The notes under the pieces were generated by a model. The model saw only the letters and a list, made by a program, of their open reading frames with translations. It searched no databases and was not told where the DNA came from. A stretch of DNA of 55,151 bases, the filler included, from Jimgerdemannia flammicorona (lineage: Eukaryota): the NCBI GenBank assembly GCA_003990765.1. It is 3 parts of 3 records of this genome, joined end to end, with 100 filler letters (N's around TTAATTAATTAA, not from the genome) between each part and the next. Parts side by side here need not be neighbours in the genome. Positions count along the whole stretch, not along the records: positions 1 to 18,322 come from RBNJ01002239.1; 2 more parts are not named here. One strand, written 5' to 3'. This document shows positions 1-51,778 of the stretch, in pieces. The translations under genes and the position numbers were made by a program. Position 1 is the stretch's first letter, and each line of letters starts with the position of its first letter.

Positions 1-423
1 TCAGGCCCTTGCTCTATATGAAGGGAGTGACCCTTCACCATCACGCCAAAATACAAAGGGAAGACGCCAGCCCATAAACACCAGTTTTCGACCCCTTGCC
101 AGAGGTTATGGGATCAGCAAATTTTTCAAGACTGGACCAATGAATAAGGATGCTCAGGAAGATCCTTATTCAGGAGGAAGATGTAACAGTGACCCCAGAA
201 TGATGACATCAGCACAGGAGACAGCCTTTCTTTACAAGCCACTAGATCAGAGTACAAGAAGATCATACGGCATATGAGATGAGCAACAATGACCAACTGT
301 GAGTCATTGTGACTACAGCATAAGTATTCTGAAGAATATAAAAGAAGGATCAAGGAACCGCAGTAGCAGCAACCAACAAGAACCCCCAATCCCAAAATAG
401 CTCAAAGACTTACCACAAACAAA

Positions 424-1281
424 ATGCCTGCTGCTCATCAAACCTCAAGGTCAAGAAATCATCAAGGTATCTCGGTTGAGGAAAGGATGTTCCAAGACAT
501 CAGAAGAGCCATGAGAACCTACTCAAGAAGGACTCCTAGCATCAACCTGGGTACTGCAGACCCTTATCACTTTATCCTCTACTGCTGTGAAATGGAAACA
601 AGGATCACTATTGCCACCGAATGCCTCCAAATGTAGCAGGAGTATGAAATAGGAAACCTCCTCTGCCGGGAGTTCCCATAGGCCAGCCCTCAAGAGCTAC
701 AAGATGCCACCCCCATAGACCTACGTGAGACAAGGACAGCAAAGAAGATCCATCAGATCTTCAGGCATGCACCATGGTTGATCCCCAACTTGGAGTATGT
801 TAGAGTCTCAGACTTCAGAGACCTGTCATCCCGCTATATCAATGCACTAGAAGCCAGGGTAGCCACAGAAGCCCAGTCCACCATCACCCTTAACAACAAA
901 GAAGTAGAAGACTTCTGGTACCCTATCCTTCAGGACAACCCAGACCAATTCCTGCAAGGATTGATCTCAGTATTCTAAGGCCCAAGCATCCGAGTTAGAT
1001 CTCCCCAAGACCCCACATTTGTCCCCTATTTTGTGGAAGAGAATCTCATAGACTGGAGAGCTCCAGACCTTGTTCCCGATTTCCCCACCACAGCCAAATG
1101 TGATGACGTCATCGATGACGTCATCCCATGCGATATATTCGAAGCATGCAAACTGTGCAATGAGACATGCGAAGTACCCGAAATGCGTGACCTACATGAT
1201 GAATTCGCAGACCTTATCTCTTTCAGTGATGATGATGATGATGATGATGAAGCTCCCATGATCTTGAACTTTCTACTCTAA
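424..1281 (+). pseudogene. Disrupted accessory ORF (~285 codons or longer) downstream of integrase in Gypsy family A
   Basis: ORFs 424-636, 778-978 and 1033-1281 are in one frame. The interrupting stops (TAG, TAG, TAA) are TGG, CAG and CAA in copy 2. Ends in an acidic tail DDDDDDDEAP. Confidence 0.75.
1102..1125. promoter_or_regulatory. Perfect 24-bp palindrome made of two tandem GATGACGTCATC (CRE/ATF-type TGACGTCA) sites
   Basis: Sequence gatgacgtcatcgatgacgtcatc is seen directly. Regulatory function is inferred only. Confidence 0.4.
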
Positions 1282-1293
1282 GTTCTTTGTTAC

Positions 1294-1415
1294 ACTGGAT
1301 AATGTCAGCACTGGTATTCTCATGTAATACTGAATAATGCCAGCACTAGTATTCTGAGGTGATGTGAAATTGTTCTAGCACTGGTATTTTGATGTGGTAC
1401 TAAATAATGCCAGCC
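1294..1415 (+). repeat. ~35-bp tandem repeats within family A LTR
   Basis: Recurring ataatg(c/t)cagcact(g/a)gtatt units. Counterpart at ~12380-12470 in copy 2. Confidence 0.7.
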
Positions 1416-2399
1416 CTAGAACTTAGTAGTTTTAGTTATTGGAATTTATATTTAGCTTTATATCTTAGCAACTATTGAATTATATTTTGTATAAATACCT
1501 CTCTTATTTCCTCTGAAATAAAGTCAGTCAACTTAGTGCAATATACACACTTCCTTGCAAGCAATCTAAGAGATAACAAGACAGTTAAAGATAAGAAGTT
1601 TGAGAACTATAAGACCTTGGGAAGGCACTCCAATAAGAACTTGCTTATAACAACTTGAGTTAGTCTAAAAGATACACCTTGAAGAGAATCTGGCATATTT
1701 GAAGGACTCAGCGACCACTACATGACAATAGCTATTTTATAATTTCAGTGATACAATTTTACTACTCATCATATCAGTCTCTACTAAAGGATGGTTTGTT
1801 CTAGACTATCTTTTAGTCATTATTTCAATATCTATAAGTATCTTCTATATCAATTCCTGAACAATTATTTTTATTTATATCTAAATTACTCTATTCTACA
1901 GATTCTTCTTTTTTTTCTGAGAATAGGATTTCAATGTAATTGATATGTAATACTCAGGTAGGTAACTGAATTTATTCCTTATATATTATATAAGTAGAAC
2001 TGTATCTATAATAATGTTGAGATATTTTATTTATAGAGTATATATAACCTGTCTATAGTAATAGTATTTTTTTATATCAGATCTATGATATTTCTGATAT
2101 AAGTTTGTTTGGGAGCTGGAAGGTTCTATAACTATTCACTAATTGCAAAATAGGCCTATAGTTGATAGACTTATAGTAGGTATCTGGCTAAGATGAGATT
2201 TTCTTAATAAATCTGAATTTACTAGCAGGGACTTCTATTGGCTAGATAGAATTAAGATAGAAGAACTGAAAGTAATTGAAATGAACTAAGGATAAGAGTT
2301 TAGAGGTACTGATCAATTCTTTGATTTATTGTATGAAGGAAGATATATATATCTTAAGACAATTGATATATACTAATATTCTTAAAGTTTGTTCATCCA

Positions 2400-3400
2400 T
2401 ACTTCTTAAATAGATACTAATTTCTCTAATATTATATACAAGATAAAGTCCTTCTCATTTGGGCTCTAGTTTAGTAATAAAGTTTATTTTGATCATACTT
2501 CTCCAAACTAATACTTGATCTCCAATCTTGATCTTCTAATTCTTCTATTTTTAGTATAGTACTTCTTTTATCTTTCTTGGACTTTAATTATCTGAGCTCA
2601 GACTTGGTTATATAATTATTCTGTCTTTTTAAGAAGTTCTCTGAGATTCTCATACATAGTCAGTAGTTCTGGTTTTCTTAGCAAATATTATTTTGAATAG
2701 CTTTTGTTTAATAGAAATATATAGTAGGGATGTTCTAAATTTCCCATAGAATCTCAGATAGATAGAGGTCCCAGTTAATAGAATTAACTTGAGCAAGTCC
2801 TTTCTTGATGATTTGATTCATTTGTTCTATTATATCATTAGTTTGAGAGTAGTATAATGTGGTTTGTTTGAGATAAATCTTATAAATTTAAGCATAACTT
2901 GTAATTATATTATTGATGAATTCTGTATCTCAATTAGACATAAGTTCTTCTGAGAGTCTATATCTAAGTGTAAGTCTATAGAGGAGGCTAATGATGGTTA
3001 GGGTATTGGTAATTTTCATTGAAAAAGCTTTAGACCATTTGGTCAGATATTCTACAAATACTAAGATATATTTATTTCTCATTAGTATAATTAGTAGAGG
3101 TCCAAATATATCTAGACTCTATTTCTGGAAGATATTGTCTAGTAATATGATTGATTGTAGTAGTACTTGGTAATTCTTCTTTCTTTAGTACTTCTGACAG
3201 ATATCATACTTCTTAAGTATATTCTAGACTTGTATTCTGAGATTAGACTAATGTTAATATATTGTTCATAGCTTTTTTTCTACATTTGTTTATCTTTAGT
3301 AGACTTTCTGGTATTCTTTTTGGATGAGATCTTCTTGTACTTTGATAGTTAGAGAAGCTTTTTTTAGAATATAGTTTCTTGGTACATCTTTCTTTTAGTT
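2400..3400 (-). pseudogene. Gypsy integrase (family B), degenerate
   Basis: LDIFGPL (~3095-3118) and TTLYYSQTNDIIEQ (decayed TTPYHPQTNGxxE, ~2820-2865). Confidence 0.85.
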
Positions 3401-3449
3401 CATTAGAGTTAGTGAGAAAGTACATCAATATTGTTATAAGCTTTCCTTA

Positions 3450-4620
3450 CTTTGTGGATAATGGTAATTTTATAATCTTATAAGATAAGGATCCAGTAGA
3501 TAAGAATTCTGATAGATTTCTTATAGTTAAATAGCTATTTGAGAACAATATGATCAGTTATCAGAGTAAATCTTTTTCTAATAAGATAATATTTGAATAG
3601 AGTAACTGTCTATATAACTGTAAGATATTTTAATTTAGTACTACTATAGTTGATCTACTGCTGATTGGTAGCTCAACTTATATAAACTATCATATGGTAT
3701 TATTAGTCAGATCCTTCTTAGGCTAGAACTGCTCTGAGGCTATCTTTAGAAGTATCTGTATATAAGATAAATAACTTCTATAGATTAGACCAAATATAAA
3801 TTAGTACTATAGTTATGCAGTACTTGAGTTCTTTGAAGACTAGTTCTTATAATTCTGTCTATTTATAAGATACTTCTTTCTTGAGAAAGGTTCAGATTGA
3901 GATAGTAATTTGGACAAAATCCTTGATAAACCTTCTATAGTAGGATATCAATATTAGAAATAATAGTATTTCCTTTAAGGTCTTGGGTACTGACTAATTA
4001 TTGATCTTCTTGGTTTTCTTTGAGTCTATATAAATTTCTTCTTTTAAAACTATAAACCCAAGAAATTCAAGTTTCTGTTTTCCAAAGTAGTATTTCTTAG
4101 TATTGAGCCTCAGGTGGTTCTTGTAGATGAGCTTGAAGAACTCTTTTAGGTGATGCAGATATTCTTCAAAATTTGCTAAATAAATGTTAGAGTAATCCAT
4201 GTTTATAATTAGACAGTAGTGAATCAATAAACTATAGACTAAGTTCATCATTCTTGAGAAAGTAGAAGATATATTATAAAGTCCAAAGAGCATTTAGAGA
4301 TACTCAAACAGTTTTTTTAAAGTAAGAAAAACTGTCTTCTGAATGTTTTTGAGATCTATAGAGATTTTATGAAATCCTGCAAAAAGATCTATACTGCTGA
4401 AGTATCTGATATCTTGTAACTAGACCAAGAGATCATTGATTCTGGACAAAGAATAGATATTCTTTTCAGTAATTAAATTGAGTTTTCTATAGTCTATACA
4501 GAGTCTCTATCCTTCTTTCTTTGGTATAATAAGTATAAGACTGGTCCAAGAACTGATAGAGAATCAGATGATCCCATTGTCTAAGAGTTCTTGAATATAT
4601 TCCTTTTTAAATATCTTTAG
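3450..4620 (-). pseudogene. Gypsy reverse transcriptase and RNase H (family B), degenerate
   Basis: RT motifs RLCIDYRKLN (~4480-4510), SSIDLFAGFHKI, MLFGLYNISSTFSRMMN and LEFLGFIV. RNase H motifs ILYTDTS (TDAS) and FTLITDH. Confidence 0.9.
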
Positions 4621-5224
4621 GTAATGGGGTATTCTATAAGACTTCTGCCAGATAAGTGTTGTATCTTCTATATTTATACTATAGTGGTATAATGAGTTAT
4701 ATAGAAGATTACCATAGTTAGTAATAAAGATATCTTAATATTTATAAAGAAGTTCTACTAGTTATCACTATTACTGAGATGTTAATTTTTCTCCAATATT
4801 AGTAAAAGACTTTACTATCTCCTAAGTTACAAAGGAGTCTTTTTTTTCTTCTGAGACCTTTTGCTATTTCCTAATAGATTTAGTTCATAAACTTCTCTAT
4901 AAGTTCAGTTGAGATAGAGTACTAGATATATATTTTATAATAGTTCTTTTTAGCAAGATGATACTTTTTCAGCTCTGGTTGGTTGCTCAAGAATATACAG
5001 GATTTATCTTATCAGAAAATATATATCCTTCAATATTCAGATTTTGGATATCTTCATTGAGTTTAAAGAAGAGATTTCTGGGGTCAGATGGTATAAAGAT
5101 TTTGAAGATAGTCTGCTCTTCTAGTTCTAGGATAAGGTTCTTGTATAATTTGACTAGTTAGTAATATACTTTCTGGAGGACATTCTTTTTGAGATAATTG
5201 ACCTAGAGGAGATATACTTTCTTC

Positions 5225-5580
5225 TTGTCTGAGCTTCCAAATCCTTCAGCTTGTCTTATTCTTTCAGTCAGTTTAGGGACTTCTTATAATTGAGGAGTCT
5301 TGATTTTCATGAAGACTACTTATGCAATCTTTTGCCTATATATTCTAGATCTATAGTTTCTCCTTCTATAGTTACTTCTTATCTAACAAGTCCAGATCTT
5401 GAGATTAGTTGGATATATGTAAGTTCTTTTAGATAGTTATATAGTTAGTTCTATTCTAAATACCAATATTCTTCTAGATTTGATAGGTTCATCTTCCAAA
5501 CTATAGAGGTCATATCTCATATCTTCCTGGTGAGCTTTGGTCAGAGGTTTGGCCTTGAGATGTAGCAGGATATACTAGAC
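5225..5580 (-). pseudogene. dUTPase domain within Gypsy family B pol
   Basis: Manual translation gives all five trimeric dUTPase motifs in order, with frameshifts and a deletion: TKAHQEDMRYDLYS (1), SRSGL (2), GETIDLEYIG (3), QKIA*VVF (4), RQAEGFGSS (5). Confidence 0.85.
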
Positions 5581-6855
5581 AACATATTTGTTGAGTTCAG
5601 ATTGTCCTTAGATTAAAGCTCTATTGGTAGTAAGCCTCTAGACTCTAAGATTGAGGTACAGCTATCTAGCTTCTATGGAGAGATCTCAGAGGTAATTGAT
5701 TTCTCTTTTTCCTATAGGATTTAGGACTTCTATAAAGTTTGTAGCATCTTCTATCTATCTTTGGCAGATTATATATCTAATGAGGGTTAGGATGTCTTCT
5801 CTTAAATCATAGATCTTGAGAGTTCTTCTTTTTGATTTCTTGGTCTGGTTTTTTCAAATTTGAGTTCTATTATCTTCTCTCTTCAATATATGGACTACAA
5901 CATCCTGGCTGAGATGAATCTTCTGATGTCAGCAGTCTCAGTAGTCTGGGTATCTTTTATGATTATAATATTTCATTGCTCAAAAATATTATTCCTGATT
6001 ATTAATCTCTTATTGTCTTGGAAATTAATATCTATCTTGGTTATAGGTCAGAGGAAGGGTGACCAAGAGATATACTTCTGTTCAGATGAAGAGATCTTAT
6101 CCTCTAGCTCAGCTTTTTAGTATTATAGTGGTTTCTTGAAAGATAGTTATTTATATAATTGTGATCAGGATTTCTGGTCTACAGGATCTTTATCTTTCTT
6201 ATTGATCTAATAGATGATACTGATAGTAATAATTACAGAGAGAGTAGAAGACCAGTCTCTTTCTCTACTACCTTACTGGTTATAAGATTTGGTAGACAAT
6301 CTTCTAAGTCTCCTTTCTCTTATTCTTATCTCTTCTATCTTAAGTTGGTTTGTTATATCTACAAAAGTATAGTGGAAGGAAGGCAATGGTATTGAGTTAC
6401 CTCTTTATCAGTATCAGATTGGTATCTTTTATACTTTTTCATAATTTCTGGTACCTTTAGCTGCATCTGAAGTATATCTATTTAGTGTAGCACCTTCTTT
6501 CTTTTGCTATTATTAACAAGGTATCATCTAGTATATCATGAGCTATGTATAAAGTTGGCTAACCTTGGGTATCAATATTAGTATAGGTTATCTGTAGGTC
6601 CTCAGTATCTGTAGTAGAGCTCTCTGAACTTTGGCAAGCTTCTCAGTGAACATAGTTCTGGTGTAGATAACTGCTTTTCAGATAGAGTCAGAATGAGCAT
6701 TACAGATAGATAAAAGGACAATAATAGTGAACTAGTAAAGTACCAGGCTAGGGGTGGTCATCAGGATTGGAGTAGGTATTATCTTGGTAAGACCTTTTGA
6801 TTAGTTGACAGAAAGTAAGGTAGTATAGAAACTGATATTCTAGTTGTATCTAACT

Positions 6856-7000
6856 AGAACTGGGAGCTGATGCAGCAATAAAATTGAGGCCTGCAGGCTT
6901 GAGGAGTGGGACTTCTCTCATTTAGTAGTACCTGACTGGAACTGAGAGCTGATATAGCAACATAATTGAGACCTGTAGGCTCAGAGAGTAGAAGTGGGGC
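6856..7000. repeat. ~80-bp imperfect tandem duplication inside family B
   Basis: gaactgggagctgatgcagcaataaaattgaggcctgcaggct is followed by gaactgagagctgatatagcaacataattgagacctgtaggct. Confidence 0.7.
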
Positions 7001-8149
7001 TTTTTTAAGCCTTAGCCCATATGTCAGTCCTTTTGAGGAGATCTTGCAGATAAGTCCTTTACTTACCTACTCTGAATCTATTCTCTCTTCTATTAGCTAG
7101 TTGGGGGGTTTTTATTTGCCTCAGGCATTTGTTTAGAGTTTGGAATATTATTTCTTATTTAGTCCTGATATTGCTAGATCTAATATATAGATATGCTCTT
7201 ATATATAGTCATGATGATCCAGCTCCAGTAAATAGACAAGTTTAGTCTATATAGTGAGAGTTGGTATATCTGACATATATAGCAGAAATGGTAAGACTGT
7301 AGGACAATTTGATAGCTTAGATTAATGAGGAGATAATGTCTGGTAGATAGTGAGAGAAAGTTTTGGCTTATATAGTTTAGGTTCCTTTTTAATAAATCTG
7401 TAGGACTTTGAGTCTATAAAATAAATAAATAAAAAAAACAGAGAGAGTGAAAGACTATTTGGTACTGATATCTTCCTAGCTAAAAAGCTTTCTCATAGTG
7501 TATTTCTTATTTTGGAATAACAGTGACTATATTGAGTCCTTTTTCAATATTTTAAAGATCATTATCTTCTGGTGGTATCCAGTGAGGGTTATCCCAGGAG
7601 ATGAGTTCAGAGAGCTCTTCTTGCTTAGAAACTTTATGTTTGAGAGTTTCTTCTTTCTTAGACATTTCTTGACCCCAAACTACTTATATCTCTACAGCTT
7701 TAGTTGTGGGTATTTCTGAAATATATCTGTATTTCTTCTTTCTTTTTTTGTACTCAGAGCAGACTATACTAGGCAAATTCCTTTTTTTAATGATTCTAGA
7801 AGAGTGTTTGAGATATTTATATCTTTTGAGATAGGTGAGATATCTTTTAATTTGTCCTGCAATGGCTTCAATTGTGATAAGGATAGTATTTCTAGTCTAC
7901 ATATTATCTTCTGGCCTATCATCTACTAGGTTTATTCAGAGATTGAGTCTGGGATCATTTTTATCTTTGGATTTTTCTTCTTCTATAGTAGATTCTTCAC
8001 TGCTGACATACTTTTCTTAGATAGTAACCTTTTTCTTTTTCTTTGACTACTCATAACTGGTTATCTTAACTCTGTACTTCTTTTCTTAGTAATCAAATTT
8101 GGGTACTTGCTGGCCAATATCAATGACTGCATTTATTTCCTTCATCTAG

Positions 8150-11975: not shown

Positions 11976-12019
11976 CATGACTCATATGTATACTGGATGT
12001 ATCTACATATACAATACAT

Positions 12020-14855
12020 TATCATATAGTGGTCACTGAGTCCTTCAAATATGCCAGATTCTCTTTAAGGTGTATCTCTTAGACTAACTCAAGTTTGTTA
12101 TAAGTAAGTTCTTATTAGAGTGCCTTCTCAAGATCTTATAGTTCTCAAACTTCTTATCTTTAAACTGTCTTGTTATCTCTTAGATTGCTTGCAAGGGATT
12201 ATGTATAAGTGAACCAGAACTGACTTTATTTCAGAGGAAATAAGAGGGGTATTTATACAAAATATAATTCAATGGTTGCTAAGATATAAAGCTAAATATA
12301 AATTTCAATAACTAAAATAAAATGCCAGGTCAGGAAAAACTACTAAGTTCCAGGGTCAGTACTGATGGTTGTACAGGTTCAGGGTACTGACATTATTCAG
12401 TATTACATCAAAATACTGATACTGGTATTATTCAGTGTTATATCAAAATACTGGTGCTGGTATTATTCAATATAACTAAGGAACTTAGAGCAGAATGTTC
12501 AGGACCATAGGGGCTTTATCATCAGAGGTCAGGATGTCTTTAAAGGAGATGAGATCTGTGAATTAATTATATAGGTCATGCATTTCACATATATTATGTG
12601 GGATGATGTCATCACCCAATGATGTCATCATGTTCAGTGGTAGGGATATTGGGAATAAGGAGATCTGGAGCTCTCCAGTCTATGAGGTTCTCTTCCACAA
12701 AATAGAAAACAAATGTGGGGTCTTGGGGAGGTCTAACCTGGATACTTGGGCCTTGTAATACTGAGATCAATTCTTGCAGGAATTAATCTGGGTTGTCCTG
12801 GAGAATGGGATACCAGAAGTCTTCTACTTCATCACTATTGAGAGTGATAGTGGACTGGGCTTCTGTAGTCACCCTGACTTCTAGTACATTGATACAGCAG
12901 GATGACAGGTCTCTGAAATCTGAGACTCTAACATACTCTAAGTTGGGGATCAACTATGGTGCATGTCTGAAGATCTGATGGATCTTCTTAGCCATCCTTG
13001 CCTCACATATATCTATGGGAGTGATATCTTGTAGCTCTTGGGGGCTGGCCTGTGGGAACTTCCAGTAGAGAATATTTCCTATTTCATACTCCTGCCACAT
13101 TTGGAGGCATTCAGTAGCAATGGTGATCCTGGTTTCTATTTTACAGTAGTAGAGAATATAGTGATAAGGGTCACCAGTACCCAGGTTGACACTAGAAGTC
13201 CTTCTTGAGCAGGTCCTCATAGCTCTTCTGATGTCTTGGAACATTCTTTCTTCGACTGAGGTATCTTGGTGATTCCTTGACCTTGAGATTTAGCAGTAGA
13301 CATTTTATTTATAGTGAGTCTTTGAGCTATTTTGGGATTAGTGGGTCTTATTGGTTGCTGTTACTGTGATTCCTTAATTCTTCTTTTATATTTCTCAAGA
13401 TGCTTATACTATAGTCACAATGACTCACAGTTGGTCATTATTGCTTATCTCATATGCCATATGATCTTCTTGTGCTCCAATCTGGTGGCTTGTAAGGAAA
13501 GACTATCTCCTATGCTGATGTCATTATTCTGGGGTCACCATTACATCTTCCTCCTGAATAAGGATCTTCTTGGGTATCCTTATTCATTAGTCCAGTCTTG
13601 AAAAATTTGCTGATCCCATAACCTCTAGTAAGGGGTCGAAAAGTGGTATTTATAGGCTGGTGTCTTCTCTTTGTATTTTGGTGTGATGGTGAAGAGTCAC
13701 TCTCTTTATATAGAATAAGGGTCTGATTCTGATCTTGACCAATCAGTTGATAGTTCAAACTCCTCTGGCTTTGAAAGTCTCATGGATGAGTAGTTACTGG
13801 TGCCATATCCCTTAGAGAATGGTCCAGACAGATAGCCTGCTGGTCATGGGACATGCTGTTATGATTCACAGACTAGAACCTTGTAGGCGGTCATTACATT
13901 TTGCTTCTCTTATATAGGTTCATGGTACTTCTTGAGTCTGTTCCTGTATACTATGGTAGGCAGTATGGTCTCTGAGATTTTTCTAAGCCAGAAGATAGTT
14001 TCCTTGATATCTTGCATATAGAAGAGTCCTTCCCATTTGGGCTCCAGTTTTTGTGACCATGAGGCTTCTACCATATTTTGATACAGTAGGACTTTTTCTC
14101 CAATTCGGATGGGTTCTAGAGTCTTGTGGTTCTTTTCCACATTCTTTCTTATCAGCACTTGTGACTTGATAATGTAATCTTCAGCCTTCTTCCTGATTTG
14201 GTATAGTCTTCAGATTTCTGTATTAACTTATCTCCAAGTTAGGTCTAGATTTGTGGCTGAGGTTCCATCAGAATCTTCTTCTCTGAAGAGCAGTTCTCTT
14301 GGAGTAAAGTGTGTGCTCTGTAACTGTATATCTCATAGGATAGAGAGGGCAGTTAGGAGATAGTTATCCCAATTTTCATATGTCTCTGAGATCTTCGCCA
14401 GGATGTTCTTGAGGATCTTATTGGTTCTCTCTGTCTGTCCATTTCCTTGAGGGTGGTATGCAGTGGTCTTGATGTGCTGGATCTTATATTTCTGATATAT
14501 TATCTTGTGAGATCTATTGACAAATTCTGTGCCATGGTCTGTTGTGATTTACTTTGGTGTCTTGTAGTAGCAGATGATTTCTTGGTACAGAAAGTCTGCT
14601 ATAGAGTGGGCATTAGTTTCTTGTAATGCTCCTGATTCTATCTATTTGATAAAGAGGTCTACAATAACTATAATATAGTAGTTTCCTGATAGTGTTACTG
14701 ATAGTGGCCCAATGATATCTATTGCAATATAGTAGAAGGAGATAGGCTCAATTCTTAATGACCTGGGTGCCTGGTCTTACTGATCTTGTTTCTATTTTTG
14801 GTACTTGTCACACCCTTTGACAAATTGGTGTAGGTCTTCTTCTATTTTGGGCCAC
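12020..14855 (-). mobile_element. Ty3/Gypsy family A, copy 2: integrase, accessory ORF and 3' LTR, truncated by a LINE
   Basis: Integrase is followed by ~1.7 kb matching 1-1727 in reverse complement. The LTR end has decayed to ...CTATATGATA. Confidence 0.88.
13910..14855 (-). pseudogene. Gypsy integrase (family A): core and GPY/F C-terminal region
   Basis: AIDIIGPL, ITTDHGTEFVN, TTAYHPQGNGQTERTN, KLEPKWEGLF...NRLKKY. Confidence 0.92.
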
Positions 14856-16200
14856 TTTTTTTTTTTTTTTTTTTATAGTCACTTGGACTCTTTCTTTATT
14901 ATCCTCATCTATCCCATATAAGTACAGTGAATCCACCCCCTATCCAATCCCCCTAGGGGGGCCCCTCCCCCCTATCCCTTCTTGATGAAACACCACTCTA
15001 TCGAAGACAATCCCCACTCTCCCACCACTCTGTTCACATATCCTTGTCACCAAACCTCGCCATTGCCCCCCTGAAGGACCCCAACCTATCCACCATCTAG
15101 TCATCAGATCCCCCAACAGCTCCTCTCACCTTAAAACCCTCTCCTGCAGTATCATCTGCTGCCTCTCCTCAAATACAAATAGCCAATATTCCACCAATCC
15201 CACCCAAACTGCTAACACCTACTCGACAGTAAGCCAACTATCACCCACTCCCCCACTAGCCAAGATCTCAAGTCCTCCCAGCAATCCCCCTCACTCTCTG
15301 GCCTATGCTCCACACCCAGTCTATTTCCTATTTCAACCCAAAAGTCCCTCAAAACTTCACACTCTCCCAGCCAATGTTCTGGTATCTGCACCAAACCCCT
15401 AGCTTGCCCTACATTGTAACACTCCTCATAATCGAAACAGCCACCCTCTACCAGATGCCCAGTGTGGAAATTCAGCATGACATTCCTCCACAGCATTCAC
15501 CACCACACCACCCAGAACTTGAGGGGAAGCCACTGCTGTACCTCTGTACTCCAAGACCAGATACCTGCCCAGTCCCACTCCTCACCAATCCTGACTGCCT
15601 GCCAACTACTCAGCCAAAGATCTCAGCCAAGACCCTGCTGACACTCCACTCTGTCCCCAATATCAAAAGCAGCAAGTGGAGTGCCCCTCAGTAGCAGTCT
15701 ATCTCATCGCCATATACTAGGTCTCCACAACACCTCCCCCTCATTGCCTTACCAGTGCAGACCAATTTGGTATGCTCCATTGACCACTCCTTACCAAAAG
15801 CCTTTAAACTGCAGCCTCTGAATTCTAGTGAGCCCTATCAAAGAGAGTAGATCTCCTGAGGACCCTCGGAGAGAGGTTCTCATCTCCCAAACCTTCTGCA
15901 GCAGAGGCACCCAACCCCCTCCATGTAGTTCAGCTGCTCTCTTCAACCACCAGACTCACAAACAGTGCAACCTCTTAGAGAAATCTACAAGGCCAAAACC
16001 TCCCCAGACCACCAGTGTTGCAAGAGTATCCCAACTGATCTAGGATCTCCTCCCTGCCCAAATCCAATCCCTAGCCACCTTTGTCAGCCTCTTCACCACC
16101 CAAGCTGGGAAGTCCAGATGGTAGGCCACATACTATAGCTTGGGGAACCAGTATATATTCAGAATTGATACCTGTAAGCACACAACCTCCAAGCTACTGA
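14856..16200 (-). mobile_element. L1/Tx1-type LINE 3' fragment with poly(A) tail
   Basis: T-run at 14856-14874 is a minus-strand poly(A). ORF 15212-15496 (PEHWLGECEVLRDFW) and GGFGLVDF are homologous to the ORF2 C-terminus at 34465-35230. Confidence 0.85.
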
Positions 16201-16239
16201 AATCACACATGACCTCCAAACAAATCTGAAAATCACCTG

Positions 16240-17975
16240 CTTGATCATGAAGCTGAGTCAATATGAAGTCACAGAACACAAGATTTACACAAACAGAATC
16301 TTACCAATCAGGACCAAATGCATATATACTGAGCACTAAGATATGTCAAATCAGAGAATCAAAACAAATAACAAACACAACTTCCAAACACATAAACATG
16401 ACCACTGAGATCTATACTCATATTCACGCTGACATTTGGAATGCCATTGTCAACCAAGCTATACTCCCTCTGCCCCTCATGAATATCCATAGCCTAGCAC
16501 CCCTCTACTTCATGGAAGTCCGATGGAATGCTCTGAACATGCTTAGCAAGGCCCACTGAATCGGACAAATCTCAAGCTATTACCAGATCAGCCACCTCCT
16601 GGAAGACATGATCGAACACCACCATGATATAGACATTACCCAGATATCTCAACACCAGAAGCTCATCACCTGCAAACATCGAGAACTCTTCTACAAGTAT
16701 AGTACCATTATTCTCTGCCTCTGAGTTACCACAGCCGAAATGATTGCTACCCTATCCTATAGCCAAATTGATGATATGATACAAGAACTCAACCACAAGT
16801 ACCTCAAGTATGTTGAAACCACAGACAGAACCTTCTCACACCCCAATGATTATATCCTGCAAATACCCCAAGTTGGATACACCATGAAGGATATCTATGA
16901 TATAATCCACTTTGATGAAGATGAAGCTGAAGATAATGATCCCTCTGATGCTGACATGACCTCTAGTCAAGAATCTCTGTCAACCCTGATCACACTGCCA
17001 ACCTTGCTGATGAACTTACAATAATTCATAACAGTATATATGACTTATTGGGACAATAACCACTGGCATAAATACCAACCTACATTCACCCCCGATTACT
17101 TCAACTACAATGAAGAGACTGGAGAACACAACCTGTACCTCCAGACAACCCTCGAGATTGAATCAACCATCTACCTCCTGAGTATGAGTGACATGAACCA
17201 TAGCCACCAGCTTACTACAACCCCATGACTCATAGTGCTGTAACCTACAGAAGGTATGCAGACAGTGAATCTGATGAAAGTGAAGATGATGCACCCCTCC
17301 TTCGCCCACCAACACCTTATCCAGTATATGAGACAGATGATGCTATTCTGTGGGATGGTGATGAAGTTTCAATATATTATTACCTCAGTGAACAAGGAGA
17401 AGTAATCTGTGAACCACTCTTCCTAGATGACTACTTCATCAGAGATGATGCAATCGATAATAATGTCATCGAAGACTACCCAGACAGTGCCTAAATCTAT
17501 AAATAGCCTAGCAGTCAGACGATCTCTTGATATATCAGATCACTCTTGTACTATATGACTGCATTCCGACTCAGCAAGGCACTTAGTGCTACATCTATAT
17601 TCAGCATAGTCCAGATAGCCCCACTAGTATAAATACCCCCTTCCCCAGACCTCAGAATCTCAGACTTGAACACTTGAACAATCCAAACACAACTCCTGAG
17701 CACTTCTCCACAATATCCCTTCACATAGCTACCCCTAGTATAGTAATATCATAAATAGCGAATAAACCTATTTAATAACCCACAAACCACTCTTAAGTAA
17801 ATCCACTTCCTGTTAGGTCCCACTCCTAACCCCATCATGAAATTTCCTAATTGGGTATTGTCTGCAGCGATACACCAATTCAACTAAGCTGGTCTTAGTT
17901 TCTTGAACTTCCTGAAATATGGAAAATCCTGAATATCCAGAACTAGTCCGAAAAAGGACTTCAGTTGAGACGTCA
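16240..17975 (+). mobile_element. Probable 3' accessory region and LTR of a third Gypsy-like family (C)
   Basis: In-frame ORF pieces 16398-17024 and 17040-17228, plus acidic ORF 17225-17494. These are followed by GTATAAATACCC (~17628) and AATAAA (17761), the same layout as family A. No pol in window. Confidence 0.55.
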
Positions 17976-18014
17976 ACCCAATCTTGAAATCAATAAGCAT
18001 AAAGGATGTACTCC

Positions 18015-18322
18015 ATTTAAGATCTTGGCTTGTAGGTAGGGTGGGGGATAGTTGGCTCACTGTAGAATGGGTGTTAGCAGTATGGGTGGGACTGGCAGGC
18101 CATTGGTTTTTTGTATTTGAAGAGGGGCAGCGGTTGGGGCTGCATAAGAAGGTATTAAGGTGGGAGGAGCTGGTGGGGGATCTGCTGACCAGATGGTGGG
18201 TGGGTTGGGGTCCTCAGGGAGGATGACGTCGCGGTTTGGTGATGAAGATCTATGAGCAGAGTGGTGGGAGGGTGGGGATGGTGTTTGACAAAGTGGTCTT
18301 TCACAGGGAAGGGGTAGGGGGG
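18015..18322 (+). mobile_element. LINE extreme 3' fragment
   Basis: LRSWLVGRVGDSWLTVEWVL... matches the reverse complement of ~14960-15270. Confidence 0.8.
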
Positions 18323-18422
18323 NNNNNNNNNNNNNNNNNNNNNNNNNNNNNNNNNNNNNNNNNNNNTTAATTAATTAANNNNNNNNNNNNNNNNNNNNNN
18401 NNNNNNNNNNNNNNNNNNNNNN
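18323..18422. other. Assembly spacer with artificial six-frame stop linker
   Basis: 100 bp: N44-TTAATTAATTAA-N44, identical in design to 36744-36843. Confidence 0.95.

Positions 18423-20582: not shown

Positions 20583-20649
<67 letters not shown>
20583..20649. repeat. Poly(T) tract (67 nt)
   Basis: Homopolymer seen directly. Confidence 0.95.
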
Positions 20650-21649: not shown

Positions 21650-22350
21650 AAATAGTAGCCTTAAGCAGTAGCTTGAGCAGCATGAGTTTTTGACTTGAGT
21701 AGCTTAAAGAGTATGAGTTTTTAGCTTGAGTAGCTTGAGTTTTTAGCTTCAGCATCTTGAGTTTTTGGTTTGAGGATCTCAATACTCTGATCTTAAATTT
21801 AAGACCAGATGTCCTAAAATCAAAAATCAGATAACCTTAAATCAAAGATCAGATTAACTTACATTAAAGGCCAGATAGTCTTAAATCAAGAGATTAAATA
21901 GTAAATCCTTGATGAGAACTGATTTATAATTAAGGCTAGTTACAATTTTGATCTTAAATCAAAGCTGGTCTTAGTCACATAATTTTAGTCTTAAATAATT
22001 AATATTTGACTTTAAAATTAAGTCAGACTCCTCTTATCAATCTTCTCTACTAAGTTTCTAAGACTCAAAACTATCAATAGAGACAGAACTATTAATAGAG
22101 ACAAATTATCAATAGAGATAGAACTATTAACAATAGAGTCAATGAAGGCAAACTATTGATGATATAGTAGATAGAGAGTGAACTATTGATGAGACAGAAT
22201 TGCTGAAAGAGGCAGTACTATTGATTGTGGAATCAATAGTAACTGAATTTTTAATAGAGATAGATTAATTGCTAGAGGCAGAACTATTGATAATGGAGTT
22301 GATAGAGATAGAACTATTAATGATAGAGTCAATAGAGACAGAATCATTGA
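21650..22350. repeat. Degenerate short tandem arrays (TTGAGTAGC; TTAAAATCAAA; GACAGAACTATTGAT)
   Basis: Three successive blocks of imperfect repeats, likely TE subterminal or low-complexity coding relics. Confidence 0.6.
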
Positions 22351-22364
22351 TGCATCTTTCTCCA

Positions 22365-23880
22365 CTACAATTCACATTACACAAACTTTTACAACATACT
22401 TTCAAGTCATTTATTAGAGAAAGACACTAAGATAATAGCAACCAGCAAGCAAGCAGATGTACATACTAGGTCAGGTGGACCTGGGGTCTTTGACTGGCAA
22501 CATGTCAGATGAGGGTATCGACTTAGGATGGGGCCTATCAGTGGTCTGAGTGGGCAGGACAGCTCAGGCAGTGGAAGCAACACTGGTGACAGAGCTGGAG
22601 GGCAGCAGGGGAGGAGCTTTGCAGATATACTGTGGGCTGGAGGTTGGCCAATCGGAACTTGAGGTGGGCAGACAGGAGAGAAGAGAAAGCAGAAGATTTG
22701 GAATGCTGGAGGTACTGGACCTCAGCTGGTGAGAGATAGGGCTAGTGGAGTAGCTGCTGGAAGTAGTGGTGGGACTGCTGATAGTTGTGTAACTGGGAAT
22801 CTGAAAAAAATTCCATATGTAACAGTTGATTGGTGGGCTGGGAAGTTGGGTCTGAAGTAGAAAAGAGATCTGGCTGATGGTGTGATGGGGCTGGTGGTGG
22901 TGCCATTACTCAAGAAGTCAATTTTGGAGTTTGTGGTGACCTTGTGTTTCAGGGGCCTGACTATGATGGCAACAATGGTTCTGGGGCATATATTGGAGCA
23001 GGTGGCTGGAGCAGCCTCAGTGAAGTTTCTGAAGGAGTTGGAGGGGGTGGAGGTGGGCTTTGAGGAGGTGGGCTCATTGGAGGAGACTTTGAAGTCTGGA
23101 GTGGCCATAGGAGAGGTAGTGGTCCCTATGGTATAGTACTTGAGGTAGGACCCCAGGGTGGTATAGTTACTGATAAAGGGGGTGGCTATGGTGATGAAGG
23201 ATGAGACTAGGAGGAGGGTGGAGGAGGTGATGGTGGAGTATAGCAATGTGGTTGATATCAGTTTCTAGGTGTGGGAGGGGACTACCTTTAGGATAGAAGA
23301 TGTAGATATCAGGATTAGACTGGCTGGAAGAGAGGTCACAGGGAAGACAAGTGACTGGCCCTCAGTATTGATGTGGGGGGCTTTTGTCTGCAAGGTGTCA
23401 AGGGTGAAAGGGAGTGAAGAGGAGGAGGAGGACTTGTCAGAGGCTCTTGAGGAGTTGAGTGGTGCTGTCGAGTGGAGGGCAAAGGCTTAGAAGTTGTATG
23501 AGGAGTTGACACACATGGAGATTATTGAAGAGAAGCATATTCACATTGATAAGAGGCAGTGGGAGAGGGCTCAAGGGTGCCAAAGGCAGAGGGAGCTGCT
23601 GGCAAGTATGGAAGGAGGGGCAAAGATGAAGGCTGAGGGCACTGAGAAGTCTGAGAGCATGGAGGCAAGTGTCTGGGCGAGTAAGGGAGGAGAAGCTGTG
23701 GAGGAGGTCCTGAAAGGGGCTGGGAAGATACCTCACAAAGACCGTTTTGCTGATGGTACATTCAAAGTCTGGGATCCAGTCATGGATAATACTCCCCCAC
23801 TGGTTAGGAGGGGTCCAGCTACAAGGGGTCAGGTGGCAGAGGATGAGCTGATGAGGGGCACTCAGTGGGGCAGACCTTTC
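22365..23880 (+). mobile_element. LINE 5' fragment (5' UTR and ORF1), diverged relative of the next element
   Basis: ORF1 pieces (VVPLLKKSILEF...; DIRIRLAGREVTGK...CKVS) align with 24360-24630 and 30710-31100. Shared 5' UTR motif CAGGTGGAC..CTTTGACTG.CA.CATG. Confidence 0.8.
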
Positions 23881-24644
23881 ACTAGTAACATTCAGGTGAT
23901 ACAAGACTCAGACAATACTTTCTACAACATTTTGGTGAAAGGTAACTAGCAATATAAACAGCAACAAATATACTAGTGAGTACATTAGCCAGGTGGACAG
24001 TAGTACCTTTGACTGACAGCATGTAGGGAGGAGGAGGGGTGATGGTTTGGGAATGCCAGGGCCTTCTAAGGCTGGCCATAGTACTGGAGGAAGAGGAAGA
24101 GGCAGATTGAGGCAACGTGGAGGGGAGAGGTTGACTTTTGCAGACAAGGTCAAGATGGGGAGAATGGCATCTGGTCTGGATAGTTGGCTGGGCCTGGGGA
24201 AGGTATTGATGGCTACTGCTGGGGGACAGAGAGGGGCCCCCATGGGAGGGTTGGGCAGTAGAGGCAGGGGGGGAGTAGGAGCTGTGACTGGGGATCTGGA
24301 AAAAAATGATGGTTGGTAGTTCAGGACAGAGAGTGGGCTTGAGGCCCAGGGACCTGGTAGATGGTGTGATGAGCATGGTGTTGGCACCATTACTCAAGAA
24401 ATCAAGGGCAGAATTTGCTATCATATTGTATTTCTGGGGCTTAGCAGTGGCTGCCAGGATGATCTTGGGACTGGTGGCATAGGAGATGAAGGGAGCAGCT
24501 TTAGTGAAGTTCTTGAAGGGGATAGAAGGGGTAGAGTTTGGGTTTAAGGAGGAGTTGTCATTGTTAGAGGCCATGGAGAAGGAGGTAATGGTGGGCAGAG
24601 TAGTGGTCCCTATGACCAAGTGCATGCACAGGGACTAGTGCTCT

Positions 24645-28725: not shown

Positions 28726-30099
28726 ATGTTGAGAAAATGTAGATGTAACCACCCAGCCAATAAGTATTTACTTGGTCCCCCCCAAGCTCAATGTGCTTCA
28801 GCTCACTGTCCCAAAGCTCAGTGCCCTAAGATGCCCAGCTTGCTGACACCCAGTCTGCTGAGCTTGCTGACACCCAGCCTGCCGAGCTTGCCAACACCCA
28901 GCCTGTCGAGCTTGCCAACACCCAGCCTGCTGAGCTTGCCGACACCCAGGTTGCCAAGCTCACTGACTCCCAGCTCACTGACCCTCAGCTCCCCTATCTC
29001 CAGCTTGACTGCCAGCTCACCACTGGTCTGCAAGCACAAGGTCCCCCACCAGATCCCAATAATACAGCTCGAAAAAGTTAGTTTTTTTCTTTTTAAATCA
29101 ATGTCTGAATTTTTTTCCTAATAACATTTGAAATATACATATCCTCCAGCTTCTAAGCCTGGGCCGGAGTGCAAATCTTGCTACAATTTCCATTTTTGCC
29201 ATCAAGTTTGCCCAAACACTATCTGGAAGTATTGCCAAACCAATTTCCTGGATGCCCCAAACCTCACAGAGAAAAGACCTTACAAATCAGACATTAGGAA
29301 TGCTTTCACTGCAGCCCACAAATGCATTAAGAAAGTACATAATGACTAACTGAGGCAAGAAGTCTTAAGAGCAATAGAAAACCATACGAAAATTGTGGAA
29401 TATTCATCATACCACACTGGCTTCAAGATGAATGCCAAAGCATAGAACAAGTGAGATTGTCCAGATGGAATTGTTATCATGGATAAACATGAAAAACTGC
29501 TGGTCATATTTGAATGAGTATCAGTGAAGAATGACAAAACACTTTATACATAACTGATGGATGGCAGGCTTGTGCATTTTGTTGAGGGGGGTAGTGGTGG
29601 AGGAGATGGAGAGGTGGGAGAGGTCAGTGCCAGTGGAGGAGTCAGTGCCATTGGAGAGGTCAGTGGAGAGGTCAGTGCAGGGGAGGTTGGCATGTGGAAG
29701 GTTGGCATGGGGGAGGTTGGTGCCGGAGAGGTCAGTGCGGTAGAACATGGGGAGGTTGGCACAGGAGAGGTCAGTGCAGAGGAACATGGAGAGGTCAGCG
29801 CAGGGGAGGTTAGTGCGAAGGAACATGGGGAGGTCAGCACAGAGGAATACGGGAAGGTTGGTGCAGAGGAACACAGAGAGGGTGGCATGGAGGAACATGG
29901 GGAGGTCAGTGTAGAGGATGAAATAGAGGTTGGTATAGAGGAGGTCAGCGCAGAGGAGGATATAGAGGAGGAGGATATAGAGGAAAGCAGTTCAGAATAT
30001 ATTGAGGAAGATGGTTTGGAATATGAGAAGGAGGAGGATCAGTTGGTTTATAGCAATGAAGAGGAGGAGGATCAGTTGGTTTATAGTGATGAAGAGTAA
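28726..30099 (+). pseudogene. Second, divergently oriented ORF carried by the hAT (Ser/Pro/Thr repeats, then acidic GEVSA repeats)
   Basis: ORFs 28726-29121, 29128-29349 and 29557-30099 are co-frame. Possible intron GTTAGT...CAG at 29077-29149. Ends before the right subterminal array. Confidence 0.5.
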
Positions 30100-30244
30100 G
30101 ATCTGTTCACACTACTAAGTTCTTTATTTTCCTGATTTACTTCCTATTTATTTCCGATTTCATTTTGATTTCTGATTTCTGTTTGTTTATTCTAAATATA
30201 TATCTTAGATGTGCAATATATTTTTTTTGGTACCTTGTAGCTTA

Positions 30245-30670
30245 AAGGCGGATTAAAGATGAGTCTGTGTTAGGTTAAATATGGGTCAGAGTCAGGTCAT
30301 ATATATTTCTTGAGTCAGGTCACATATATTTCATGGGTCGGATCACATATATTTCTTGGGTTGGATTAAAGACAGGTTACATATAATTCCAGGTTGGGTT
30401 AAAGATGGGTGACATATGTTTCCAGGTTGAGTTAAAGATGGGTGATATATAATTCCAGGTCAGATTAAAGATGGGTGACATATGTTTCCAGGTCAGGTTA
30501 AAGATGGGTGATGTATAATTCTGAGTTGGGTTAAAGATGGGTGACATATTATTCCAGGTCAGGTTAAAGATGGGTGATATATAATTCTATATCAGGTTAA
30601 AGACAGGTGATGTATAATTCCAGATCAGGTTAAAGACAGGTGATGTATAATTCCAGGTTGGGTTAAATAT
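30245..30670. repeat. Right subterminal 33-bp tandem array of hAT (inverse of left array)
   Basis: Units gggttaaagatgggtgacatat(a/g)(a/t)ttccaggtt, period 33. Confidence 0.88.
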
Positions 30671-31944
30671 GTACATGGGTCAGCTCAGGTTGCAATGCAC
30701 TAACTGGGACCCTCGAGTGGTGCAGTTGATGGTGTTGGATCTTCCTATAGTATTGAGGAAGAGGGCCAGAGAGTTGATTGTGGAGGTGGTCAAGGAGTAT
30801 GGAGAGATTGTAGACATCAGGTTCAGGATCTGGGAGGGCACTGAGCTCTGGACCAGTGAAATTGATATCCAGGTAAGGCTGGCTGGCAAGGAGAACACAG
30901 GGAAGATGAGGGATTGGCTGGTTACTCTTAAGTGGGGACCAGTGAAGTGCAAAGTCTCGTGGATGAAAGGGATACTGGAAGAGGAGGAGGATTTGCTGGA
31001 GGCTCTTGAGGCTCTGGCTGGAGTGGTAGAGAGGAGGAGATTGGCTTGGAAGGAGTATGAAGCCAAGACAGTAGTGGAAATAGTGGATGGAAAGAGGATA
31101 AGGATGGACCAGGCAACCTGGGAGAAGATGCAGGAGAGGCATATCAAGAAGGAGCTGCTGAAGAAGTTGGGAGGCAGTGGAGTTGGCAGCAGTGCAGGGG
31201 AAGGTGGTGCAGGAATGGGTAAGAGTGCCTGGGCTGGAGAACACAGGACAGCCCAAGGTGGGGCCCAGGGTGGATCGAGGGAGGAGGGACAGGGTGGTAT
31301 GGAGGTGAGTGTGGAAATGAGCAAGGAAGTGCACCCTCAGTATGGTGTCCTGGGTGGAGCAGGGGGTGAGGTGGAACTACTGGATATACCAGAGGAGGAG
31401 TTGGATGAGTCAGTGAGGAGGAGCACTTTGGTACACCCAGAGGTGGGGGTTTAAAGGGTCACCCAGGGTGCTGTAGAGGTGGTGGATGAGGAGAAGTGGC
31501 TGTGGAAGACTCTGAAGGGAGTGGCAGTGGAGAAGCTGGGGGGAGAGAACTTCCAGGTTATGGAAGAGAGGCATTGGGAGGAAATTCTTCATGGTAAGGA
31601 GGTACTGAGGAAGGTTAGGAATGAGATTCTGGTGGTACTCTTAGAATCAGTGGAATATCAAGTAGATGATCAGAGGGAGGAGGAACTTTGGATGATGGCA
31701 AATGAATAGGAGACATACTTAAAGGGTTCAAGAAAGGGGTTGGAGAAGTAGAAAGTGGTCTGTGCAGATTATTGGGTGGAAATGGAAGTGGTGGATAGGG
31801 TGGAGTGTCAAGAAATCTTGGAGGCATTAGATGCTCAGGCTGTAGTAGAAGGTGACCAGGAAGCAGAGCAGCACTTGAATCTATTTGGGGATGAGATGAG
31901 TATGGAATAATAGGCTGGGTTCTCAAAATCAAACATTATACAAT

Positions 31945-34900: not shown

Positions 34901-35290
34901 TGCAGGGTTTAGGGGGGGACCTGTGGCCTGAAGCATGGCAGAGGGTGGGGATTGGTGAGGAGTGGGACTGGAATAGTCTTTGGTCTTGGAGCAAGCAGGT
35001 GATGCAGTGGCTTAACCCCAAGTTCTGAGGGATATGGTGGAGGTTTTTAAGGCGGAATGTGATGTTGAACTATTGGTCTGGGCACTTGGTGGCGGATGGC
35101 CCCTTTGAGTGTGAGGAATATATAGATGTTGGTCAGGAGGGGGGTGTGGTACAAATGCCTGAACATTGGCTTAGCAAGTGTGAAGTCTTAGAGGAGTTTT
35201 GGCACTGCATTGCAAATCAGTTAGGACTGTGAGCCCTGGTGGGGGGGAAAGGGGGGAGATGGGGGGACCTATGCCAAAGGCTTGTGGGGA
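31945..35290 (+). pseudogene. LINE ORF2 (APE endonuclease, RT, C-terminal Cys/His region), multiply disrupted
   Basis: APE motifs MNNITRIFSFNVNGLRG, GGDFN, SRIDWI and WSDH. RT motifs LLDMDHKLVTKILVTRL, FLDQEKMYD, QGDPL, AFVDD, LPKLWY and GRLGLVDF. Confidence 0.92.
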
Positions 35291-51675: not shown

Positions 51676-51717
<42 letters not shown>

Positions 51718-51734
51718 AAAAAAAAAAAAAAAAA

Positions 51735-51778
<44 letters not shown>
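51668..51778. repeat. Long imperfect poly(A) tract just downstream of the GTPase stop
   Basis: About 110 nt, nearly all A. Confidence 0.9.

Follow-up and report, generated by a model that had tools for sequence, protein, structure and literature searches.

Results

Organization of the locus

The window, that is, the whole 55,151-nt stretch of DNA analyzed here, opens on its plus strand with the 3' end of a repeat (copy 1, positions 1-1741), truncated by the edge of the window. The minus strand holds another copy at 12008-13726 (copy 2), which is in a more advanced state of decay and is 81.8% identical to copy 1 over 1774 alignment columns. Each copy carries a gene that could be aligned between them (Table 1). 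In copy 2, this gene follows a Ty3/Gypsy-type integrase on the same strand, recognized by its Pfam core domain; the C-terminal motif of the integrase ends at 13913, and the accessory gene starts at 13303. The description of the locus in the initial annotation, as an uncharacterized accessory gene downstream of a Gypsy-type integrase, is thereby borne out.

Copy 2 is cut off upstream at ~14960. No further pol domain was found on the minus strand upstream of this point, and a Pfam search of three frames of 13001-18400 returned the integrase core only. In copy 1, frame 2 of positions 1-423 contains three stops (275, 290 and 398), compared with eight and nine in the other two frames, and is open from the window edge to the first of them. 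Judging from this open frame and from the integrase upstream of the gene in copy 2, the frame-2 ORF probably belongs to pol. Neither frame 1 nor frame 2 of 1-423 matched a Pfam family at E ≤ 10, and Pfam searches of the accessory gene and of these two frames identified no chromodomain after the integrase. A likeness between the pol tails of the window and of L002, a metagenome contig with a distantly related gene, was also considered; BLASTP produced no alignment of window frame 2 with L002, and the idea was dropped.

Table 1. Features of the two repeat copies, in window coordinates.
Feature	Position	Strand	Details
Accessory gene, copy 1	424-1281	+	285 codons; ATG at 424, TAA at 1279-1281
Accessory gene, copy 2 (more decayed)	12485-13303	-	Alignment to copy 1
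Integrase core, copy 2	14449-14725	-	Pfam rve PF00665, E 4.8e-09
Probable 3' tail of pol, frame 2	1-277	+	Open for 91 codons, window edge to TGA at 275-277
Polypurine tract AGGAGGAAGA, then directly TGTAACAG	172-181	+	Kept in copy 2 at 13546-13555
Proposed long LTR, ~1546 bp	182-1727	+	Polypurine tract-TG and one X20 contig
Rival short LTR, about 440 bp	1288-1727	+	TGTTACA at 1288
Copy 2 counterpart of proposed LTR	12022-13545	-	BLAST of copy 1 parts against the window
TATA box 1, TATAAAAG	337-344	+	86 nt upstream of ATG
Conserved untranslated leader, AAGACTYACYAYAAAYAAA, ~20 nt	405-423	+	Directly before ATG
Four tandem units, 35-nt spacing, just 3' of gene	1272-1419	+	Family D1, 63-86% identity to reference unit
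TATA box 2 (TATAAATA at 1490) and, 27 nt from it, poly(A) signal AATAAA (1517)	1490-1522	+	

Further genes in the window are intron-bearing and eukaryotic, and encode a GTPBP1-like GTPase, a fragment of an MFS pump (a weak match to the fungal TRI12 family, below Pfam's cutoff), a PNPOx-like protein and a methyltransferase. With such genes in the window, the host looks fungal. A second Gypsy-like element of 27-33% G+C occupies ~2300-8000 on the minus strand and abuts the end of copy 1. Read-through translation reveals reverse-transcriptase-like and integrase-like motifs at ~4491, 4287 and 2929, and downstream of its integrase this AT-rich element leaves no space for an additional gene. A 305-nt inverted repeat (14967-15271 and 18017-18322, 79% identity) brackets a strongly C-rich segment of 3 kb, with a GC skew down to -0.49, that sits exactly at the cut of the copy 2 integrase and may be a nested insertion of some element. 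Extreme strand asymmetry is also seen at 30000-35000 and 22000-24000 (GC skew +0.33 to +0.55, ~40-50% G+C), and these stretches are unlike the AT-rich decayed repeats. In addition, the window contains a 67-nt T run (20583-20649) and three closely spaced A runs of 29-43 nt (51676-51778).

One reading frame, decayed by transitions

The copy 1 gene is interrupted by internal stops at nt 634 (TAG), 679 (TAG) and 976 (TAA), and had been read in the initial annotation as three short ORFs of a single frame. The corresponding codons in copy 2 are TGG, CAG and CAA, and the intact relatives described below have Trp, Gln and Gln at these places, so that the three ORFs do constitute one frame. Each of the remaining five frames of 424-1281 holds between 11 and 23 stops. 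Copy 2 has acquired stops of its own, at copy-1 positions 775, 946 and 1201, together with a 4-nt deletion after codon 4 and further deletions in the last third of the gene. The ancestral gene comprised ~285 codons and began at its own ATG in a conserved context.

Copy 1 and copy 2 show 272 differences, of which 216 are transitions, and the neighboring bases follow a pattern: of the 81 differences with C in copy 1 and T in copy 2, 42 are followed by A, and of the 64 with G in copy 1 and A in copy 2, 32 are preceded by T. The predominance of transitions, taken together with this neighboring-base pattern, identifies the decay of both window copies as being of the RIP kind.

Within the acidic region of the gene lies a perfect-looking palindrome (1098-1129) with two TGACGTCA cores, which encodes Asp-Asp-Val-Ile twice. 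The core reads TGACATCA in copy 2, and this version occurs three times in L001, a second metagenome contig with a related gene.

Boundaries of the LTR

We placed contigs of four public sequencing runs (X1, X3, X5 and X20) on positions 1-1741. From 1728 onward, the primer-binding-site-like sequence CTTGGTGCCCATTGG follows in 11 contigs, nine of them from X1 and one each from X5 and X3; the continuation begins CTTGGTGCCC, as expected for the primer-binding site that follows a 5' LTR. With these contigs running into such a sequence directly after 1727, the 3' end of the LTR at that position is firm.

For the 5' end, positions 1-1741 contain nine purine runs of at least 8 nt, three of which are followed by TG. 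One of the three is the 10-nt run at 172-181, which is followed directly by TGTAAC at 182, and in a single X20 contig a stretch of 255 letters of unrelated sequence stops immediately before 182. The polypurine tract-TG together with this contig break makes it more likely that the gene lies within the LTR. Based on these observations, we give somewhat better than even odds to an arrangement in which the gene of the window family would reside in the U3 of a ~1.5-kb LTR (182-1727), with a copy in each LTR, the boundary at 182 being supported by a single contig and a single motif. The window itself contains neither a 5' LTR nor a solo LTR for comparison.

The alternative is a short 3' LTR of ~440 bp starting with TGTTACA at 1288, with the gene between pol and this LTR and present once per element. 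We consider this layout a realistic possibility, though not the favored one. It is the layout of L002, in which a 12-nt purine run and then TGTAAT come directly after the stop codon, placing the gene upstream of the LTR; the window TGTTACA, 7 nt after the stop, is in the matching place, and Gypsy elements of fungi usually have short LTRs. However, no purine run precedes 1288. Where a polypurine tract is needed, both copies have pyrimidines instead (GTTCTT in copy 1 and GTTCCTTAG in copy 2), and because transitions cannot turn purines into pyrimidines, these are not a decayed polypurine tract. The proper polypurine tract-TG, at which the one contig breaks, is at 172-182. The initial annotation had placed the gene between integrase and 3' LTR: the position downstream of the integrase holds, and L002 has the layout as a whole, but in the window family it is doubtful given the polypurine tract-TG upstream of the gene. 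Both layouts may exist, set by which polypurine tract is used.

The coverage of the repeat by contigs also varies along its length, in a way that is not usable as evidence: X20, which may be an RNA run, has no cover over 1-177, and the summed contig depth of X1, X3 and X5 is ~3 times higher from bin 178 onward than over 1-177.

Candidate promoter, leader and transcript end

Upstream of the gene, both window copies, L001 and L002 share an unchanged ATATAAAAG, found 65-86 nt before the ATG in surroundings that are poorly alignable. TATAAA is confined to this place and the LTR promoter in copy 1 (337 and 1490) and in L001, with two occurrences each, and to this place in L002, with one. When the upstream sequence was shuffled, the probability of finding TATAAAAG was 0.0099, 0.0022 and 0.007 for the three lineages. 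The leader directly before the ATG is likewise kept in all four sequences from the three lineages; in L001, and again in L002, its phase to the ATG is shifted by a single base. On the far side of the gene, the pair formed by the second TATA box and the poly(A) signal recurs in L001, with TATAAATA at 1218 and AATAAA at 1244. The conservation of TATA box and leader in three lineages suggests that the gene is its own transcription unit, and we find it slightly more probable than not that this unit would extend from the TATA box 65-86 nt upstream of the ATG to the poly(A) signal of the LTR.

We also compared the flanks on both sides of the gene with each other. For the window family the likeness lacks significance (z 1.8, its score being reached by 24 of 300 shuffles), and the same holds for L001 (89 of 300 shuffles). 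In L002, a 33-nt direct repeat with 82% identity flanks the gene (170-202 and 1481-1513; z 6.3, 0 of 300 shuffles). As L002 alone has significant flank likeness, it is there that an element common to two promoters finds support; the repeat would fit two co-regulated promoters.

Splicing was set aside. An intron from 449 to 643 (GT..AG) is represented by one X20 joint (depth 6, side 22), which is too weak to call, and a spliced message would have to use the AAG that precedes the leader, a poor acceptor site.

Relatives and evidence for selection

Altogether, 15 relatives were identified: 13 proteins in public collections of billions of sequences, and two intact ORFs, of 323 and 291 codons, on the metagenome contigs L001 and L002. 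The intact relatives come from soil. Five relatives were obtained by a word-indexed search of 5.8 billion protein clusters, and an exhaustive HMMER search of 1.84 billion representatives returned five proteins at E ≤ 0.001, none of them longer than 342 aa; profile search brought the number of protein relatives to 12. All protein relatives are metagenomic and derive from contigs of 567-4848 nt, and they bear no informative name, three being labeled just "hypothetical protein". None of 91 stretches from viral contigs matched. Among 43 stretches from prokaryote genome contigs there was one 15-residue match, in a bacterial MAG (L003), which was taken as chance.

Some of the database entries show decay. 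Between P0013 and P0011, and between copy 1 and P0002, several arginines of the intact members are replaced by Cys, His, Trp or Tyr in the decayed ones, which is the expected CpG/CpA transition pattern, and indicates that there are decayed copies among the database "proteins" of the accessory family.

The seven relatives that reach the N-terminus all begin with Met-Pro at one and the same site. In the three pairwise comparisons of copy 1, L001 and L002, the pN and pS values are 0.293 and 0.691, 0.427 and 0.745, and 0.395 and 0.745. Non-synonymous changes are thus far rarer than synonymous ones, with ratios of 0.15-0.19 that are rough, since synonymous sites are saturated, and that are not near 1. 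The common start and a pN far below pS argue for a genuine stand-alone gene under selection. The relatives share 25-54% protein identity, and frames that stay intact at such distances are strong evidence of selection in themselves; by this comparison, the gene is clearly seen to have been kept intact by purifying selection.

Extra ORFs of LTR elements are often captured genes, as in rotifer examples described in part of PMC5408684, and a host gene might merely be carried along here, without a role in the life cycle of the element. We regard this as improbable, for two reasons: (i) in two large protein collections there is no relative outside short element-like contigs, and (ii) the place, start context and TATA box are the same in lineages whose proteins are only 43-54% alike, which suggests long co-inheritance with the element.

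Extent of the gene

The initial annotation had put the ancestral product at 285 aa or more after pol, and had allowed for an upstream extension in frame 1 (~190-423) because the stops there could be reverted by C-to-T changes. Any stop is revertible in this way, so "revertible" stops do not discriminate. The figure of ~285 codons stands, but the longer ORF does not. Eight stops interrupt the frame in 1-423, and all eight are also stops in copy 2; the N-terminally complete relatives share their Met-Pro start at the same place as the window gene; and single-base indels just before the ATG differ among the three lineages, so the upstream frame is not kept.

The same observations bear on the idea that the frame represents the C-terminal portion of pol, or of some other longer ORF reaching in from upstream of 424. 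The frame of the copy 2 integrase and that of the gene do coincide in copy 1. Against this stand the shared stops, the common start, the varying upstream phase, the 342-aa ceiling on relatives in the exhaustive search, and a search restricted to longer proteins in which none of 1460 candidates was a relative, and such an extension is therefore highly improbable.

Features of the encoded protein

By 19-residue Kyte-Doolittle averaging, the highest means in three members are 0.88 (copy 1), 0.47 and 0.66, with no membrane-like segment in any of them, and the protein is on this basis clearly predicted to be soluble. An envelope-like or other membrane protein, the common assumption for third ORFs, has in its favor the position after pol and nothing more, and with no hydrophobic segment and no Pfam or fold match it is the least probable of the alternatives, as the initial annotation had judged in finding no TM helix.

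The first 45 residues are basic and arginine-rich (8 Lys+Arg vs. 3 Asp+Glu), and the last 70 are strongly acidic (3 Lys+Arg vs. 22 Asp+Glu). Three motifs are conserved in the core of the alignment: W-x-E-Y-E-I, H-Q-x-F-R-H-x-P-W and W-N-P-x-L-x-D-N-P-D-Q. Two hydrophobic motifs are conserved in the tail: F-x-x-L-I-x-F and, at the C-terminus or close to it, P-x-hydrophobic-L-N-F. A model predicted from 15 sequences (mean pLDDT 56; 49 for an earlier model from 9 sequences) has helices spanning residues 18-185, a small hairpin at 200-212 and disorder from 217. Model and composition agree with the earlier proposal of a helical protein with an acidic tail.

Pfam searches with P0001 and the copy 1 protein gave no families at E ≤ 10, the 15 family members gave nothing better than E 0.028, and a profile search of PDB sequences gave no match at E ≤ 10. 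With the model, the best Foldseek match in the PDB had E 0.38, the best VIA Z among 48161 chains was 3.3, and the best match in BFVD had E 0.25, with none at E ≤ 0.001. The ESM Atlas yielded nothing usable (best feature score 0.83, best TM 0.33). The check for an already characterized domain, suggested at the outset, thus returned no match from Pfam, PDB sequences or Foldseek. Since the model is poor, "no known fold" is weak evidence; with that reservation for the fold, the predicted helical core appears to match no Pfam family, solved structure or known fold.

Discussion

We propose that 424-1281 is a defunct version of what was a genuine gene in its own right, an accessory gene located downstream of pol in a Ty3/Gypsy-type LTR retrotransposon. 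The gene would have encoded a soluble protein of ~285 residues maintained by selection, and would have had its own promoter; taken jointly, we assign these propositions a probability of roughly 0.55. Both gene copies in the window would have been killed by RIP-kind transitions. In a living element, the gene would be transcribed from the conserved TATA box upstream of its ATG, and the transcript would end at the poly(A) signal of the LTR. In the window family, this unit would lie within the U3 of a ~1.5-kb LTR, so that each LTR would carry a copy.

As to function, the basic N-terminus, the helical core, the acidic, motif-bearing tail and the location of the gene beside the promoter of the element lead us to suggest, tentatively, that the protein could work in the nucleus as a regulator or adaptor in the expression of the element itself, its acidic tail being of the activation type, by analogy to the transactivators of complex retroviruses. 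It might instead take part in anti-silencing or targeting, as the initial annotation had suggested. A more elaborate version, which we think unlikely as it stands, would make each LTR a small complete gene (TATA box, 285-codon ORF and poly(A) signal) upstream of the promoter for the genomic RNA; the protein would be a transactivator or host-factor adaptor of a kind new among retroelements, and would feed back on both promoters.

Additional ORFs after pol occur in plant and rotifer elements, according to the part of PMC5408684 that deals with them. The ORF3s of bdelloid rotifers described there resemble the present gene in being separate ORFs after pol, family-specific and not envelope-like. 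They share no domain with it, and the gene studied here differs by its conserved TATA box, its lack of a known domain and its possible location in the LTR. Boty-like Gypsy elements of Botrytis cinerea likewise bring an extra gene, brtn, into a fungal Gypsy element; in the portion of PMC8365987 that describes it, brtn is antisense, whereas the window gene is on the integrase strand, and this description sets the two apart. A survey of fungal LTR elements mentions no such gene in the portion of its text considered here (PMC3248453). Word searches of open-access text returned no description of the accessory family or of a protein gene inside the LTR of a retrotransposon. What is new is therefore the accessory-gene family, and possibly its placement, extra ORFs after pol being already known.

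Among the retroviruses, the foamy virus gene for Tas/Bel1 has ~300 codons, lies near the 3' end, is served by an internal promoter and encodes a protein with an acidic C-terminal part. The window gene would be comparable in its ~300 codons, its position near the 3' end, its apparent promoter and its acidic C-terminal part. A viral structure library gave no likeness in sequence or fold with the poor model (0 matches at E ≤ 0.001), and the host is fungus-like, not vertebrate. The sag gene of MMTV is situated inside the U3 of a retroviral LTR and encodes a membrane glycoprotein. Given an LTR start at 182, the window gene would resemble sag in having ~300 codons within U3; it differs in that its protein has no hydrophobic segment.

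Extra genes turn simple retroelements into "complex" ones, and the examples known so far are mostly envelope genes or captured enzymes. Public data contain very few members of the accessory family (13 database proteins and two contig ORFs), yet it has been selected across deep divergence and seems to have a promoter of its own, and its conserved tail motifs offer a direct handle for finding the host partner. If the gene is inside the LTR, every LTR, solo LTRs included, would be a copy of the gene, and both repeat annotation and the reading of effects on neighboring host genes would change. Should the feedback between two promoters also apply, unlikely as we consider it, the element would count as a "complex" LTR retrotransposon of a fungus-like host, and the factor would continue to be expressed even from its solo LTRs.
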